Source of the DNA: Candidatus Binataceae bacterium
Lineage (GTDB): Bacteria > Desulfobacterota > Binatia > Binatales > Binataceae
Assembly: GCA_035541875.1 (NCBI GenBank)
Contig: DATKML010000034.1
Location: 56,367-120,366, forward strand
Length of the DNA stretch: 64,000 nt
Direction: 5' to 3'
Positions 7,008 through 53,202 of this stretch are shown piece after piece. The notes beneath the pieces are model-generated. The model saw only the letters and a program-made list of their open reading frames with translations, did not search any database and was not told the origin of the DNA. The first letter of the stretch is position 1. Each line of letters starts with the position of its first letter. A program made the translations under genes and the position numbers.

Positions 7008-7154
7008 ACCGACGCCACCGCCTCCACCTCATTTCGGACCCCTTCAGCATACCCTACCCCGACCGTTGCCGGTCAAGGCTAACCGCTAGGGATAGTATGC
7101 TGATTCACTAACAGGCCCCGCATCTTGAGTCGGGGTCTGTGGATAATACGAGCA

Positions 7155-7787
7155 TCAGTCCTGAATCAATTCAGTATTCCAGTAGGCTGCATCGACGGTC
7201 GTCAGGAATGGCATCCATTCCTGATACCGGCGCAAGCTGAACATCTCGCTACTGAACGGAGTCCACTGGGGGCGCTTAGGCTTGCTAATCAAGACCATTC
7301 GCGCCTCTTCGGGTGTACGACCACCTTTGCGACGGTTACAGATGTGGCAGGAGCAGACCACGTTCTCCCAGGTCGATTGGCCGCCCTGCGAGCGTGGAAC
7401 TACATGGTCCAGGTTCAATTCCGTGCGCGGCAGACGGCGCGCGCAGTATTGGCAGGTATTGTTGTCCCGCGCGTAGATGTTAAAGCGCGAAAAACGCACG
7501 TGTCGCTTGGGGACGCGTTCATACGCCACCAGCAACAAGACGCGCGGAACCCGCACGACCCCGCCGATTACGCCAACGCGCTCATGATGCATCTCGACGG
7601 CGAGATCGCGCCAGCTGTTGAAATCAAAAGTGCGATACTGTTCATCAACGGCGCGCGCTACGCCCTGATATAGGAGCGCGAACGCACGTTTAACCGAAGT
7701 GACATGAACCGGCAGATAGGAGCGGTTAAGCACCAGAACGCGGGTGTTCAGAACCGCGCCCGTCGTCATTAGAGCTGTCGCGGCCAT
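7155..7787 (-). CDS. HNH endonuclease family protein.
   Basis: The HNH motif is LNLDHVVPRSQGGQSTWENVVCSCHICNRRK, and a CQYC zinc-binding pair lies upstream. Confidence 0.7.
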   Translation of the reverse strand: MAATALMTTGAVLNTRVLVLNRSYLPVHVTSVKRAFALLYQGVARAVDEQYRTFDFNSWRDLAVEMHHERVGVIGGVVRVPRVLLLVAYERVPKRHVRFSRFNIYARDNNTCQYCARRLPRTELNLDHVVPRSQGGQSTWENVVCSCHICNRRKGGRTPEEARMVLISKPKRPQWTPFSSEMFSLRRYQEWMPFLTTVDAAYWNTELIQD

Positions 7788-16887: not shown

Positions 16888-16988
16888 ATGCTTAACCAAC
16901 CAGACCGCTTCGCGTTGCTGCCTACACTACGCGCGCAAATTCGCTCAGTTGGGATGACAGCAAGAGCGACGTTACTTCCGCTGTCTTC

Positions 16989-17048
16989 CATTTGTCATCC
17001 TGAGCCGACGAGCGAAGGCGAGTCGTGTCGAAGGATCTACGCGAAGCG
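16989..17048 (+). repeat. Miniature dispersed repeat, copy 1: CATTTGTCATCCTGAGCC, then a variable hairpin of about 24 nt, then AAGGATCTACGCGAAGCG.
   Basis: It is directly alignable to inverted copies at 37538-37596 and 38795-38860. In one frame it translates to CHPEPTSEGES, the hallmark of the widespread CHPERSEGSAF-type repeat family. Confidence 0.75.
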
Positions 17049-17175
17049 ATTCGCCGATGCCACGCAGCGTACATAGTGAGTGGGGGCTGCTGCAATTGTT
17101 GCGCTGGACGTTTGCACAGCTCGTTGACTGTCGACTAATTGATTCCCTCAACTCGACGCGAGTGAGGCGCTATCA

Positions 17176-36559: not shown

Positions 36560-37289
36560 GTCTCCTTAATTTGCCGCGATTTTATTGAGCTTTTCGGCAT
36601 CGTACACCATTTCCGCTCTCTGTTCACACACTTACTAATGGCGTAAGGCCATCTCATTCAAAAGTTGCAGAAACGCGGACGCAGATTTTCCGGTTAGCAA
36701 AAACGTAAATTCTTGCCGCAGATGCTACTCATAGGTAGTATATGCACAAGTTTAGAGATGATTGTTGTAAGAAAATATTGTTTTCGCAACTTAAAGCATC
36801 TCTCACTCGCACTGATATGTGTGGTTGTGCTGTGTCGGCCTTGGCTCATTGCTGTGCAGACGATCACCGATGAGGAACAAGGGCACTCGCTACAATCGAT
36901 TCTTGTTGACTCTCATCTATCGGTGCTCAAAGCGGCGCGGCGGCGGCCGATAGCCTTCGCCGCGACCAAACCCAATACCACGTTAATCGCTATCGCGATT
37001 GCCACGACTAATCGGCGGGTGGCGTCGAGTGTCCGACGCTTTGCGCCCTATCCGATTGTCGGCTTTCCGCTCGCCAGCAAGCTTCCATCAGGCTTTGCCC
37101 CGCGCCCGCCGCCTGTTCTGGCTTAGTCCCAAGCTTAATAAGAACAGTTCGATGTAAGTGCGCTTGGGTTTTGTGCCCTCGCGCCGAGGTGTGAGCGTCT
37201 ACGCTGCTGACCTTTGTCCAGCGCCGGAATTCGCTCAGGGTAATCGTGCACAGTGTCTTACCTGTGGCACGCCTGATGGAGATCTATCG

Positions 37290-37484
37290 ATGAAAGCTAT
37301 TATTGCACTCTATGTGCGAGTTCGAGAATCAATGAAGCGACTGGAAAAGGGCCAGACGATGACTGAGTATGCACTGATTATGGCCGCCGTCGCCGTAGTG
37401 GTGTTCGTGACATATCAGAAGATGGGTCAGAATATTGGATCGCTCGTGAACAAGATCAATACCGATCTGACGACCGCGAGTTAG
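37290..37484 (+). CDS. Flp/Fap family type IVb pilin (prepilin).
   Basis: The leader ends ...MKRLEKG, followed by QTMTEYALIMAAVAVVVFVTY, the Flp processing motif plus a hydrophobic helix. Alternative start ATGs are at 37290 (GGAG upstream) and 37332. It is an orphan, with no tad genes nearby. Confidence 0.6.
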   Translation: MKAIIALYVRVRESMKRLEKGQTMTEYALIMAAVAVVVFVTYQKMGQNIGSLVNKINTDLTTAS

Positions 37485-37537
37485 TATCAGTAGTATATGT
37501 TTGCGAAGAGCCCTCGGTGGAGACGCCGGGGGCTCTT

Positions 37538-37596
37538 CGCTTCGCGTAGATCCTTAGACGCGTCTCGCGATACTCGCTGGCTCAGGATGACAAATG
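37538..37596 (-). repeat. Miniature dispersed repeat, copy 2 (inverted relative to copy 1).
   Basis: The reverse complement reads CATTTGTCATCCTGAGCC...AGACGCGTCT palindrome...AAGGATCTACGCGAAGCG. It fills the convergent gap between flp and thrC. Confidence 0.75.
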
Positions 37597-37605
37597 AGCT
37601 ATCTA

Positions 37606-38706
37606 TCAGCTCTCCAGAATCTTGATGACCTTGTCGATATCCGGTTCGACCACCAGCGTGTTGCTGAGATTCTTGAGTGCCGTATCCGGATCTTTCAGGC
37701 CGTGGCCGGTCAGTGTGCAGACCGCGACCGAGCCAGGCTTCAGTCCGCCTGCCGCACTGTACTTGAGCAGGCCAGCGACCGACGTCGCCGATGCGGGCTC
37801 GGCGAACACCCCCTGCGATGCGATCAATCGATAGGCCGCGAGAATCTCGGCGTCGGTAACCATATCGATAACACCGCCGGACTCGTCGCGCGCGTTGGTC
37901 GCGCCCTTCCAGCTAGCGGGATTGCCGATCTTGATCGCGGTGGCGACGGTATGCGGATCGTCGATCGGATGGCCGAGCACGATCGGAGCTGATTCCGCCG
38001 CCTGATAGCCCATCATCTTGGGCAAACGCTCGGAGAGCTTCTCAGCCTTATATTCCTGGTATCCCGCCCAATAGGCAGTGATATTGCCGGCGTTACCGAC
38101 CGGAAGAAAATGATGCGTCGGGGCGTCGCCGAGCTGATCACAAATCTCGAACGCACCGGTCTTCTGTCCGGCGATACGATCAGGATTAACGCTGTTCACG
38201 AGGCGGATACGCACCGGATCGCGCTCGGCGAGGTCGCGCACGACCTTCAGGCAGATATCGAAGTTGCCGATAATCTCGACCACGCGCGCACCATGCATCA
38301 CGCTCTGAGAGAGCTTGCCCAGCGCGACCGATCCCTTGGGAATCAGCACGTAAGCCTGGAGGCCGGCGCGGGCCGCATAGGCAGCCGCCGAAGCAGCGGT
38401 GTTGCCGGTCGAGGCGCAGATGACCTTCTTGGCGCCCTCGCCCAGCGCCTTGCTCATCGCGACGGTCATCCCGCGATCTTTGAAGGAGCCGGTCGGATTC
38501 GCGCCCTCGAACTTGAGATAGACTTTGACACCGCTACCAACGCGCTCAGCAAGCGCGGGGCTTTCAATAAGGGGCGTGTTGCCTTCGTTGAGAGTGACGA
38601 CCGGAGTCGCCTCGGTGACCGGCAGGAAGCGGCGATAGTGCTCGATCAATCCGGGCCATCGCGTGAGGCGATTATTCGAAGAGGGTTTTTGCGTTTTCGG
38701 CGGCAT
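37606..38706 (-). CDS. thrC: Threonine synthase.
   Basis: It has the PLP-dependent fold-type II core with GNPTGSFKDRG containing the Lys. Confidence 0.9.
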   Translation of the reverse strand: MPPKTQKPSSNNRLTRWPGLIEHYRRFLPVTEATPVVTLNEGNTPLIESPALAERVGSGVKVYLKFEGANPTGSFKDRGMTVAMSKALGEGAKKVICASTGNTAASAAAYAARAGLQAYVLIPKGSVALGKLSQSVMHGARVVEIIGNFDICLKVVRDLAERDPVRIRLVNSVNPDRIAGQKTGAFEICDQLGDAPTHHFLPVGNAGNITAYWAGYQEYKAEKLSERLPKMMGYQAAESAPIVLGHPIDDPHTVATAIKIGNPASWKGATNARDESGGVIDMVTDAEILAAYRLIASQGVFAEPASATSVAGLLKYSAAGGLKPGSVAVCTLTGHGLKDPDTALKNLSNTLVVEPDIDKVIKILES

Positions 38707-38794
38707 TCGTTTTTACGTCCGTAGTATGGAGAGCTTCGCCATTCCGGTAATCGGTACCGGCTGCACTTGCCATCAAGCGCTCACGCGCGTGATG

Positions 38795-38860
38795 GCTCGC
38801 GAAGCAATCCGAGATTCTTCGCTGCGCCCGCGCTGCTCGCTTCGCTCAGAATGACAAAAT
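38795..38860 (-). repeat. Miniature dispersed repeat, copy 3 (more diverged).
   Basis: The reverse complement reads TTTTGTCATTCTGAGCGAAGCGAG...CGAAGAATCTC. It lies in the thrC-hom intergenic spacer. Confidence 0.65.
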
Positions 38861-38874
38861 CGGACCATCCTGCC

Positions 38875-40194
38875 TCATAGGTCCTCTTCGATGCGAATAA
38901 AAGCGGGCGGGCCTTCGATCATCTTGAGCCGGCTGATCGCAGTCAGTGCTCGACGGAGATTCCGCTCACGCGCCTGATGGGTCCGCATAATTACCGGCAC
39001 AGTCTTCTCGACGGCGCGCTCCTGCTGAATCACCGAAGCGATCGAGATCTGGTTGCGGCCGAGAATCGAGGCGATCGTCCCCAGCACGCCCGGCTGATCG
39101 CGCGCGGTGAAGCGCAGATAGTACTCGCATACCACGTCGTCCATCGGCTTTACACGCGCCCGCTTGACCATTGTGGGTGGATAGCCGAGCGGAGGTGCCG
39201 CAGCACTCGATTCAGCGCGGCGGTGACGCGCAATTTCGAGGATATCGGCGACGACAGCAGTTGCCGTCGGCATCATGCCGGCACCACGACCGTAATACAT
39301 ACTCGCGCCCAGCGCCTCGCTATGCACGTAGATCGCGTTGAAAGCACCAACGACGCTAGCCAGCAGATGGCGCGTGCGGATCATCGTCGGATGAACCCGC
39401 GCCTCAATCTTGCCGCTGTCGTCCTTGGCGATCGCGAGCAGCTTAATCGTGTAGCCGAGCTCGCGGGCGTAGTCGATATCGGCACGGCTCACGCGGCTGA
39501 TACCCTCGGTATAAACCTGCGCGGGCTTGAGGCTTACGCCGAAGGCGAGCGTCACGAGCAGACAGAGCTTATGTGCGGCGTCGTGCCCCTCGATATCGAG
39601 CGTCGGATCGGCCTCAGCCAGGCCCGTGCGCTGCGCTTCCTTGAGCGCATCAGCGAACTCCGCACCCGCGTCGCTCATCATGCTGAGAATCGAGTTGCAG
39701 GTGCCGTTGACGATACCGTACACGGCTCGTTGGCGATCGCCGGCGAGTGCCTCACGCAGCGTCCGCATGATCGGAATACCGCCGCCGACGCTCGCTTCGA
39801 AGCCGATCGCGCGACCATGCTTCTGCGCCAGCTTGAACAGCTCCTCACCACATTCAGCGAGTAGTGCTTTGTTGGCGGTGACGACATCCTTGCCCGCATC
39901 CAAGGCCTGTTGAATCAGGCTATAAGCCGGTTCGATACCGCCGAACAGTTCAACCACCAGATCGACATCGTCGCGGGTGACCAGCGCCGCCGCGTCACGC
40001 GTGATTAGCTTAGCGTCGAGACCGATCGATGGATTCGGTTTGAGGCTCCGATCGGCAACCCCGGCAAGCTCGAGCGGCGCACCCAGCTTGCTCGCAAGCA
40101 TCGCCGCATTGCTGCGCAGCAGCCGAACGACTCCCTCGCCGACCGTCCCGCATCCGAGCAGGGCGATCCTGATTGGCTTGATTGTGCTCGCCAC
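38875..40194 (-). CDS. hom: Homoserine dehydrogenase with a C-terminal ACT domain.
   Basis: The NAD-binding N-terminus is IKPIRIALLGCGTVG. The start is set at a GTG that lies 4 nt after the upstream aminotransferase stop, giving a 439-aa protein. In-frame alternative starts at ATG 40239 and TTG 40296 would overlap the upstream gene. Confidence 0.75.
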   Translation of the reverse strand: MASTIKPIRIALLGCGTVGEGVVRLLRSNAAMLASKLGAPLELAGVADRSLKPNPSIGLDAKLITRDAAALVTRDDVDLVVELFGGIEPAYSLIQQALDAGKDVVTANKALLAECGEELFKLAQKHGRAIGFEASVGGGIPIMRTLREALAGDRQRAVYGIVNGTCNSILSMMSDAGAEFADALKEAQRTGLAEADPTLDIEGHDAAHKLCLLVTLAFGVSLKPAQVYTEGISRVSRADIDYARELGYTIKLLAIAKDDSGKIEARVHPTMIRTRHLLASVVGAFNAIYVHSEALGASMYYGRGAGMMPTATAVVADILEIARHRRAESSAAAPPLGYPPTMVKRARVKPMDDVVCEYYLRFTARDQPGVLGTIASILGRNQISIASVIQQERAVEKTVPVIMRTHQARERNLRRALTAISRLKMIEGPPAFIRIEEDL

Positions 40195-45302: not shown

Positions 45303-45374
45303 GCCCCGGTAGTGAAAAGGACATCACGGAGGTCTCCGGAACCTCAAGTCCGGGTTCGACTCCCGGCCGGGGCA
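45303..45374 (+). tRNA. tRNA-Arg (anticodon CCG).
   Basis: I folded it manually. The acceptor stem GCCCCGG pairs with CCGGGGC. The D-stem is GTGA/TCAC. The anticodon stem is GAGGT/ACCTC with loop CTCCGGA (U33, CCG, G37). The T-arm is CCGGG-TTCGACT-CCCGG with discriminator A. CCA is not encoded. Confidence 0.85.
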
Positions 45375-52164: not shown

Positions 52165-53202
52165 ATGATGAGATCACTTACCCGTGCCCGTCCCTCTCAG
52201 ACGGCTACGGTATTAGCGCTCCTGATCACGCTGCTGGCGGCGCGAGCGAACGCTCAGAATGACCCACTGCCGTCCTGGAACGAGGGCCCGGCCAAGCAGT
52301 CAATCATAACCCTCGCGAAGGATGTCACGGATAAGTCGAGCCCCTCGTATGTAGAACCACAAGATCGCATCGCCACCTTCGACCAGGACGGGACTCTCTG
52401 GGTTGAACACCCGATATACACACAGGTGGCCTTCGCGCTTGACCGTGTGGTGGAATTGGCGCCGAAGCATCCGGAGTGGAAAGCCACTGAGCCCTTCAAG
52501 GCGGTTCTCACTGACGACAAAGCCGCCATGGCCAAGTTTACGCTCCGCGACTTCGAAAAGATTATTTTCGCGACCCACACTGGCATGACCGTGGAACAAT
52601 TCAATGCGATCGCCAAGGATTGGATCGCCAAAGCCAGAAATCCGCGATGGAAGAGGCCCTATACTGACCTTGTATATCAGCCGATGCGAGAGGTTCTCGA
52701 CTATCTGCGGGCTAATGGCTTCAAGACCTACATCGTTACGGGGGGTGGTCAGGACTTCGTTCGGTCTTACGCGGTGCAAACCTACGGCATACCGCCCGAG
52801 CAGATTATTGGGTCGGCGCTCGAGACCGATTACACCTATAACAAAGAAGGTCAGGGGATATTGATGCGGCCTCCCAAGGTGTTGCTTAACAACAACTTCT
52901 CGGGCAAGCCGGAAGACATCTATCTGTTCACCGGGCGTCGTCCTCAGGCCACATTCGGCAATTCGACTGGCGACAGGGAGATGCTGGAATACACCCAAAC
53001 TGGCGGCAAGGAGGCGTTGATGATGCTGGTACTTCACGATGATCCGACCCGCGAGTATGCCTACGGCCCGGCTCAAGGGCTGCCGGATACCAAGGTCGGT
53101 ACTTTTTCGAAGGCACTGTATGACGAAGCGAGGACCCGAGGCTGGAACGTCATCAGCATGAAAAAGGATTGGAAACGAATCTTCGCCTTTGACCCCCAAT
53201 AG
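52165..53202 (+). CDS. Secreted HAD-superfamily hydrolase (putative phosphatase).
   Basis: It has a signal peptide. HAD motif I is FDQDGTLW. The later motifs are YIVTGGG and FGNSTGD. Confidence 0.65.
   Translation: MMRSLTRARPSQTATVLALLITLLAARANAQNDPLPSWNEGPAKQSIITLAKDVTDKSSPSYVEPQDRIATFDQDGTLWVEHPIYTQVAFALDRVVELAPKHPEWKATEPFKAVLTDDKAAMAKFTLRDFEKIIFATHTGMTVEQFNAIAKDWIAKARNPRWKRPYTDLVYQPMREVLDYLRANGFKTYIVTGGGQDFVRSYAVQTYGIPPEQIIGSALETDYTYNKEGQGILMRPPKVLLNNNFSGKPEDIYLFTGRRPQATFGNSTGDREMLEYTQTGGKEALMMLVLHDDPTREYAYGPAQGLPDTKVGTFSKALYDEARTRGWNVISMKKDWKRIFAFDPQ

Follow-up and report, generated by a model that had tools for sequence, protein, structure and literature searches.

Repetitive extragenic palindromes (REPs) of the CGTC-tagged kind begin with this unpaired tetranucleotide, which is 'changed to TGTC in many repeats' and may also read CCTC, followed by a stem of 8–9 positions opening with A-T and then T-A, a loop of 4–5 nt and a 3-nt tail near CCA (Di Nocera 2013, PMC3733652). 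They mostly form dimers, often heterodimers, and lie behind open reading frames (ORFs) in unidirectional or convergent spacers, with some copies intragenic and no dedicated transposase; their families CGTC-1 to -4 extend over five phyla and have dRS3 of Neisseria and RPE-4 and RPE-6 of Rickettsia as members (PMC3733652). Here we describe a dispersed miniature repeat which occurs in three copies, about one per 21 kb, in a 64-kb stretch of DNA from Candidatus Binataceae bacterium (contig DATKML010000034.1, positions 56,367–120,366; the whole stretch is referred to as the window). The three copies are probably a variant, marked by G·A mismatches in the stem, of the CGTC/TGTC-tagged REPs and of the Ssn-related motifs (SRM), hairpins that serve as targets of an Ssn nuclease in single-stranded DNA (ssDNA). 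Rather than RNA regulators, they are most likely inserted target sites for a nuclease.

The orientated form of dRS3 is the Neisseria Transformation Sequence (NTS, CGTCATTCCCGCGMAVGCGGGAATCYRG), and SRM flank ssnA, the gene for a 94-residue single-domain GIY-YIG protein (cd10448) (Chenal 2025, Nat Commun, PMC11893778). SsnA binds the hairpin as ssDNA only and on one strand only, not as double-stranded DNA (dsDNA) or RNA, and cuts a few nucleotides upstream of it. According to mutagenesis, binding depends most on the C following the palindrome and cleavage on the three nucleotides preceding the palindrome; the loop tolerates replacement, extension or removal. SsnA makes the transformation of N. 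meningitidis by DNA with an NTS less efficient, and the layout SRM-ssn-SRM resembles an insertion sequence (PMC11893778). With a partner enzyme identified in 2025, the nature of this repeat class is largely explained by existing work, and the three copies in the window are ordinary members of it. What is new is a variant with G·A mismatches that has a very wide host range and escapes current search strings.

Signature of the three copies

The initial annotation had described one REP-like palindromic element at three gene boundaries, and the positions, strands and gene contexts (the latter by Pfam) all held up (Table 1). The 5' arm TTTGTCATCCTGAGC is exact in copies 1 and 2 and has one mismatch in copy 3; all other matches in the window have at least three mismatches, and none of 100 shuffled sequences contained as many matches. 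The 3' arm with its tail, GAAGGATCTACGCGAAGCG, is found in copies 1 and 2 only (0 and 1 mismatch; two matches in 0 of 100 shuffles). The inverted repeats of the window in 1st and 20th rank (I1, I20) are formed by the arms of copies 1 and 2. A covariance model built from copies unrelated to the window returns the three sites as its top three matches in 64 kb and nothing else convincing. Copy 3 is the best match (20.7 bits, E=0.004), the core of copy 1 is matched at 16997–17037, and copy 2 is aligned properly in its 5' half only, because its 3' G·A module is mutated. Two candidates for a fourth copy, at 52252 and 4386, proved to be chance partial matches inside other sequence.

The common core reads T-GTC-AT-y-CT-GA-GC…GC-GA-AG-r-AT-C-T in which a covarying stem of 5 bp is followed by tandem G·A mismatches and a distal hairpin whose length varies; the arm-to-arm distance is 24 nt in each of the three copies. 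All of them retain the TGTC tag, the A-T/T-A start of the stem and the C after the palindrome. As in NTS and SRM, an unpaired (C/T)GTC tag is followed by a palindrome of the form AT...AT and then by a conserved C, the hairpin is orientated, the loop is free to vary or extend, and intergenic copies number tens to hundreds. The fixed positions (GTC, AT...AT, C) and the free centre of the family correspond to the requirements of SsnA point for point. In contrast to the perfect CCCGC/GCGGG of NTS, however, the central portion of the stem reads CTGAGC/GCGAAG and includes two G·A mismatches, and the tail is CTc rather than CYRG/CCA. With the CGTC-tagged REPs the family shares the (T/C)GTC tag, the A-T/T-A stem start, a short unpaired tail, the frequency of inverted dimers, many of them heterodimers, the position mostly behind ORFs in unidirectional or convergent spacers, the depletion in divergent spacers, the occasional intragenic copy and the lack of a known dedicated transposase; it differs from them in the loop, which is either GNA (3 nt) or a long extra hairpin, in the CT(c) tail and in the G·A mismatches of the stem. 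The separation of the G·A type from CGTC-1 to -4 is based on the text description of those families.

Copies 1 and 2 carry a second mini-hairpin, CGCGAAGCG. The tail ATCTnCGCGnAGCG also follows copies in six other contigs (including L006, L039, L108, L140 and L283; L numbers denote loci of the comparison sample). The appended mini-hairpin marks a subfamily comprising copies 1 and 2. Copy 3 has GAAGAATCT as its 3' arm and is devoid of the tail ACGCGAAGCG, and is therefore assigned to a different subfamily; its centre is similar to that of a viral copy (L099). In its DNA minimum-energy fold, copy 1 forms two nested stem-GA/GA-stem modules and a separate CGC-GAA-GCG mini-hairpin. The perfect palindrome noted for copy 2 is present in its centre. 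Beside copy 1 lies a degenerate half-copy, which, as read from the sequence, may be the remnant of a head-to-head dimer with copy 1; the assignment is tentative, since the half-copy was not significant in the covariance-model search of the window.

Table 1. Coordinates and parts of the three repeat copies in the window
Feature	Position	Strand	Description	Basis
Copy 1	16989–17048	+	divergent spacer between tsaD (-) and zinc-type dehydrogenase (zinc-ADH 'qor') (+)	Pfam context
Copy 1, core hairpin unit	16993–17038	+	TGTC tag, stem ATCCT/AGGAT, tandem G·A, ends ATCT	
Copy 1, distal part	within 16993–17038	+	stem CGAC/GTCG, second G·A pair module, GAAG loop	
Copy 1, appended mini-hairpin	17039–17049	+	aCGCGAAGCGa (GCGNAGC-type DNA mini-hairpin), folded as (((...)))	DNA fold
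Degenerate half-copy	16943–16959	-	GCTCAGTTGGGATGACA, reverse complement TGTCATCCCAACTGAGC, 33 nt 5' of copy 1	read from sequence
Copy 2	37538–37596	-	from 9 nt past thrC stop, faces flp pilin gene	Pfam context
Copy 2, core hairpin unit	37548–37592	-	3' G·A module mutated, TCTAAGG not TCGAAGG; centre AGACGCGTCT	
Copy 2, appended mini-hairpin	37537–37547	-	aCGCGAAGCGa, overlaps foot of unrelated 9-bp GC hairpin	
Copy 3	38795–38860	-	from 14 nt past hom stop, upstream of thrC, inside 168-nt hom-thrC spacer	
Copy 3, core hairpin unit	38812–38856	-	ATTCT/AGAAT subtype	covariance-model match

Architecture and covariation of the repeat family

Pattern scans of phage contigs and genomes yielded a sample of motif-bearing loci, at least 120 of them from the genome scan; the counts of loci and copies given below refer to the matches listed. 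As the scan of phage contigs showed, the copies in the window are long-centred members of a huge family, whose commonest form is 26 nt long (GTCATyCTGAGCGnAGCGAAGrATCT). In 212 distinct copies of this short form, the G, T and C in front of the palindrome are conserved to 100% (the G was not imposed by the search), position -1 is T in 81% and C in 13%, and the C directly after the palindrome, likewise not imposed, is conserved to 99%. Of the nine stem positions, A-T and T-A at the start are invariant and are followed by three covarying pairs, two G·A mismatches and two more pairs. The loop is a G-N-A triloop with any N, closed by C-G, and the distal part is exactly GCGNAGC, again with any N; the tail after the palindrome is CT(c). 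Stem triplets are most often TCCT/AGGA (112) and TTCT/AGAA (86), followed by TCCC/GGGA (9), TTCC/GGAA (9) and TGCT/AGCA (7). In the family as a whole the arm-to-arm distance ranges from 5 to 30 nt, and longer centres build stems of their own with compensatory changes.

The initial annotation had proposed a test for such changes in the central stem; the stem of the family covaries. Among 68 distinct sequences, 97.9% of cells are paired and changes on both sides occur in 59 cells, compared with 14 in shuffles; the observed values were attained in 0 of 500 shuffles, and none of the slid registers came near the observed pairing. Nearest-neighbour folding of the three copies, as RNA and as DNA and on both strands, gave no z-score better than -1.24 (RNA: -1.2, -0.2 and +0.9). 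Since standard models ignore sheared G·A pairs and GNA loops, folding energies were dropped as evidence either way, and the hairpin is supported by covariation within the family, not by predicted energy. The centre is variable, as had been proposed, but the three copies fold no better than shuffled sequences.

Two features hint at a structure on the level of DNA. Among 837 outer-stem pairs, G·T wobbles (4) are as rare as A·C mismatches (5). Moreover, the distal part of the short form and the tail CGCGAAGCG have the same sequence as the d(GCGNAGC) mini-hairpin, a DNA structure of exceptional stability (Hirao and colleagues; review PMC13037366). The mini-hairpin is a motif from physical chemistry rather than a genetic element, and finding it here only suggests a structure formed in DNA.

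Inverted pairs make up about half of all copies. Their two arms are often unlike each other, yet each remains self-complementary (for instance in L133 and L157), and the unit is therefore a single hairpin. This bears on the possibility that the repeats are ordinary miniature inverted-repeat transposable elements, in which the 26-nt arms would be terminal inverted repeats read as dsDNA by a DDE transposase. The many inverted pairs with a spacer of 10–50 nt and the presence/absence polymorphism described below would be in line with it. Such an origin is nevertheless extremely improbable, as the covariation lies within each arm and is kept when the arms of a pair differ, single arms are common and include all three copies in the window, no clear target-site duplication is seen at filled and empty sites, and no recurrent transposase is found among the neighbours.

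Translation of the 26-nt consensus gives CHPERSEGSAF, and that of copy 1 CHPEPTSEG..., which bears out the proposed link to the spurious ORFs of that name: the family is the source of CHPERSEG-type ORFs, and the G·A variant accounts for those of the CHPERSEG and SFRAKRGI type in soil and metagenome assemblies. A literature search by strings (GTCATCCTGAGC, HPERSEG, GAGCGAAGCGAAG and similar) returned primers only.

Several arrangements depart from the isolated hairpin. Tandem partial 5' arms (GTCATTCTGAGC plus 8–12 nt), repeated 2–4 times in front of complete copies and especially beside ssn genes, are present in L326 (1–1190 and 1477–1800), L329, L333 and L120 (11989–12064), and could be a footprint of repeat generation. 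Four head-to-tail copies with a 57-bp period and no variable spacers (L031, 7496–7704; L115, 9725–9933) represent a tandem array, not a CRISPR. In a Fibrobacter metagenome-assembled genome (L239, ~7150–7300), the motif falls into the first codons of an apparent lipoprotein signal peptide (MKNSFPSVILSVAKNLAMLSIAAVMFVACGG), which is either an in-frame intragenic copy or due to a mis-set start. A second conserved block, CAGGCTGCGGAAAAAC, is situated about 30 nt 5' of the motif in the Acidobacteriota loci L135, L153, L158, L242 and L229 and suggests larger mosaic units, like the intergenic mosaic elements of Neisseria.

Association with Ssn-type nuclease genes and host range

A local profile search for GIY-YIG genes (PF01541) found two among the at least 120 genome loci, in Gracilibacteria (L161) and Cyclobacteriaceae (L142). 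In both, the gene adjoins G·A-type copies, in L142 with a dimer on each side. These proteins are homologues of Neisseria SsnA: that of L161 shares 40% identity with the N. gonorrhoeae homologue (98% of the query aligned), and the N. meningitidis protein was recovered with a five-sequence profile, along with other relatives that bring the total to at least 8000. The gene of L142 (3413–3736) is apparently frameshifted near the N-terminus, owing either to a long-read assembly error or to decay into a pseudogene. In the reverse direction, nine Ssn-homologue loci were chosen by the protein alone and the motif was counted within 400 nt of the gene. Seven of them, namely plasmids of Planktothrix and Spirosoma, Thermodesulfovibrio thiophilus and four metagenome contigs, contain 2–14 G·A-type copies (background, 0.007 per window counted); the other two, N. 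gonorrhoeae and a prophage-like contig, have perfect-stem motifs. Classic copies (TGTCATTCCCGCGAAAGCGGGAATCCA) share contigs with copies of the G·A type. Like NTS and SRM, the G·A type is placed on one or both sides of a single-domain GIY-YIG gene of about 94 codons, and it flanks most of the sampled Ssn-homologue genes.

By analogy with SsnA of Neisseria, the following course of events would be expected. Once the DNA is single-stranded, the top strand would fold into the hairpin, an Ssn-family nuclease (single-domain GIY-YIG, cd10448) would bind it in ssDNA on one strand only, and cleavage would occur a few nucleotides 5' of the tag. In Neisseria, such cutting restricts the recombination of incoming single-stranded DNA that bears the motif. 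The arrangement SRM-ssn-SRM is reminiscent of an insertion sequence, so that this enzyme may be responsible for spreading the repeats as well.

The G·A type reaches well beyond the hosts reported for NTS and SRM and is also found in Acidobacteriota, Chloroflexota, Nitrospirota, the candidate phyla radiation (CPR), Firmicutes, Cyanobacteria and phage contigs. Altogether, hardly any bacterial phylum is without the motif, which is also present on many phage contigs; the listed loci further cover Bacteroidota (including cultured Mucilaginibacter, Hymenobacter and Flavobacterium), Omnitrophota, Planctomycetota, Verrucomicrobiota, several proteobacterial classes, Campylobacterota, Fibrobacterota and Gemmatimonadota, and none of the at least 120 loci is archaeal. 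A BLAST search located the motif, unannotated, on plasmids of Planktothrix, Gloeothece, Nostoc, Hymenobacter, Spirosoma, Phocaeicola and Granulicella.

The identity of the partner enzyme also separates the family from classical REP and REPIN elements, which are short imperfect palindromes with an unpaired GT[AG]G tag served by an HUH-Y1 transposase (RAYT, TnpA-REP), and whose sequences are usually lineage-specific. Both kinds have an unpaired 5' tag, form inverted doublets and are tolerated at the 3' ends of genes, and in both an ssDNA hairpin is presumably recognised by a single-copy enzyme whose gene the repeats flank; in the family studied here, the presumed partner is a GIY-YIG nuclease and the motif is near-identical across phyla. 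Mobilisation of the window copies by a RAYT would accord with the palindromic unit, the tag, the inverted dimers and the intergenic bias towards 3' ends, as well as with the class-3 Y1 REPs of Acidobacteria and Planctomycetes, which also hold tandem G·A modules (PMC6006769 supplement). These 'CnGA-footed' atypical REPs of class-3 TnpA-Y1, described from Solibacter, Planctomycetes and Legionella (Quentin et al. 2018, PMC6006769), resemble the G·A type in the succession of stem, GA/GA, 2-bp stem and loop and in their high copy number in Acidobacteria; their sequence, however, is unrelated (CAGAGCCGCGACCGTNAGGGAGCG), they have no GTCAT tag and they are tied to a Y1 transposase. Moreover, the tag of the window family is (T/C)GTC and not GT[AG]G, a regular-expression search of motif-bearing loci totalling 2.7 Mb found no HUH...Y ORF, the published compilation of REPs next to all TnpA-Y1 genes (REPtron) does not contain the motif, and the recurrent neighbour is a GIY-YIG gene, all of which makes a RAYT very improbable. 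Clustering of 532 flanking ORFs brought up only phage structural genes, response regulators and epimerases, and no recurrent transposase; the GIY-YIG gene was missed there because it is present in one copy per genome.

A bolder interpretation, which we regard as a tentative possibility, is that G·A hairpins and Ssn-like genes constitute a distinct, nearly pan-bacterial mobile system in which the nuclease, besides restricting incoming ssDNA, would copy or move the hairpins; this would amount to transposition or homing by means of a single-domain GIY-YIG ssDNA nuclease. The unit SRM-ssn-SRM would then be autonomous, single hairpins would be its miniature derivatives, and phages would carry them between phyla. 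Insertion polymorphisms, the tandem partial 5' arms and the near-identity across phyla fit such a system and do not demonstrate it.

A single locus with an Ssn homologue was found in phage contigs. In L332 (JGI contig 3300048851, 1001–1441), a 146-residue homologue flanked by perfect-stem motifs is surrounded by phage genes for head-tail connector and GP7 proteins, so that phages carry some of the ssn genes. On the Planktothrix agardhii plasmid (L326; NZ_LR882964.1, 17656–20313), the Ssn-like gene lies between an MmeI-type restriction-modification gene and drmA of DISARM, which is a defence-island setting. PADLOC contains no model for Ssn proteins.

Insertion, orientation and the evidence weighed

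The copies are identical across four population contigs (99.8–100% identity). The hom-thrC-apgM region was compared with that of about 40 relatives whose ThrC is 82–91% identical. In most of these, hom stop and thrC start are separated by 2–10 nt and an apgM-like gene follows within about 100 nt after thrC; copies 2 and 3 are absent from the orthologous locus in all of them, and are therefore insertions into a formerly compact operon. They are lineage-specific insertions and not conserved operon signals, and copy 1 would likewise have entered the spacer between tsaD and qor. For this genome, the hom-thrC spacer and the 3' region of thrC are accordingly to be read as recent insertions rather than as conserved regulatory signals. 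Related phage contigs likewise provide pairs of filled and empty sites; at five of them no clear target-site duplication was seen, the boundaries being blurred by divergence.

Single copies between co-directional genes are biased towards the sense orientation (63 sense, 33 antisense; p=0.003). Within 50 nt after the stop of a long ORF lie 70 of 188 sense and 26 of 140 antisense copies, and crowding at 0–50 nt behind stop codons is confined to sense copies. Divergent spacers are depleted of copies, and inverted pairs show no strand bias. Copy 1 itself sits in a divergent spacer with its putative remnant partner, and copies 2 and 3 are located behind ORFs. The GC skew of the window was too weak for a test of replication strand to be informative.

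The sense bias is the chief argument for a role mainly at the RNA level, in which the hairpin behind the stop codon would protect the 3' end of the mRNA, terminate transcription or regulate. This was the function originally suggested, and it also agrees with the crowding behind stops, with the sense orientation of copies 2 and 3 and with the view that many REPs are transcribed (Di Nocera et al., PMC3733652). As the primary role it is nevertheless improbable. Rfam 15 gave no match to the repeat in the window and 15 motif-rich loci (gathering threshold) or in the surroundings of copy 1 (E<=10), and the z-scores of RNA folding are unremarkable. T is not enriched downstream of the hairpin and terminator scans call nothing on the elements, so that a Rho-independent terminator was rejected; a promoter scan also called nothing on the three elements. 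G·U is not favoured over A·C, and a G-N-A triloop closed by two G-C pairs belongs to DNA rather than RNA (PMC13037366). Furthermore, about half of the listed copies are inverted dimers without strand bias, copies 2 and 3 were inserted recently and break up a compact operon, and SsnA does not bind the RNA form (PMC11893778). The sense bias near stops may have arisen as a side effect or mirror the places that tolerate insertions, and the copies may have a secondary effect at the RNA level.

Several observations weigh against the interpretation of the three copies as a G·A-type variant of Ssn targets. Loop (3 nt or long) and tail (CTc) depart from the description of CGTC-tagged REPs, and cleavage of a G·A-type hairpin by Ssn is a prediction made by analogy. 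The published SRM string HGTCWYN(0-2)YYVSBRHN(0-5)WNVSBRGN(0-2)RNCYNB, which matches classic NTS, matches 0 of 618 listed G·A-type copies and none of copies 1–3; therefore, the latter are addressed as a variant of the known SRM kind. A role confined to ssDNA does not obviously predict the 63:33 sense bias or the sense-only crowding behind stops. Copy 2 is devoid of one G of the 3' G·A module, and the standard folding energies of the copies are not significant in comparison with shuffles. Finally, no ssn gene was found either in the 64 kb of the window or in contigs of relatives totalling about 0.6 Mb, so that a cognate enzyme, which this genome would presumably encode, is unproven here.

Owing to the low density in close relatives (4 copies in 627 kb), the copies may also be relics. 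In that case the family would have spread earlier or arrived with imported DNA, and its members would be mere spacer DNA today with no cognate enzyme. Apart from the missing ssn gene and the low density, the mutated G·A position of copy 2, the divergence of copy 3 from copies 1 and 2 and the half-copy remnant beside copy 1 would suit such a history. However, all three have preserved the GTC tag that is invariant in the family, the A-T/T-A stem start and the C that follows the palindrome, copies 1 and 2 are near-identical in arms and tail, which suggests recent spread, the copies are identical across the four population contigs, and three copies per 64 kb exceed the density in relatives. Inert relics are for these reasons considered rather unlikely, and Ssn targets remain the preferred explanation.

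As the search string in use misses a variant that flanks most sampled ssn genes, the Ssn system is probably far more widespread than counted. The combination of tandem sheared G·A pairs with a GNA mini-hairpin is, in addition, a candidate for a second recognition class of site-specific ssDNA nucleases, enzymes that are under development as tools.

Compared with the relatives, the window has about 1 kb of extra DNA between thrC and apgM (region examined, 36560–38880), which holds the flp pilin gene (37158–37484, + strand) and an ORF (36713–37126). In the gap between thrC and flp, a perfect 9-bp GC hairpin without a T-run (GAAGAGCCC...GGGCTCTTC, 37505–37538) runs into the tail of copy 2 without belonging to the repeat; it may be the real bidirectional transcript end. 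The sole Rfam match in the window is a tRNA gene at 45303–45374, which is unrelated to the repeats.

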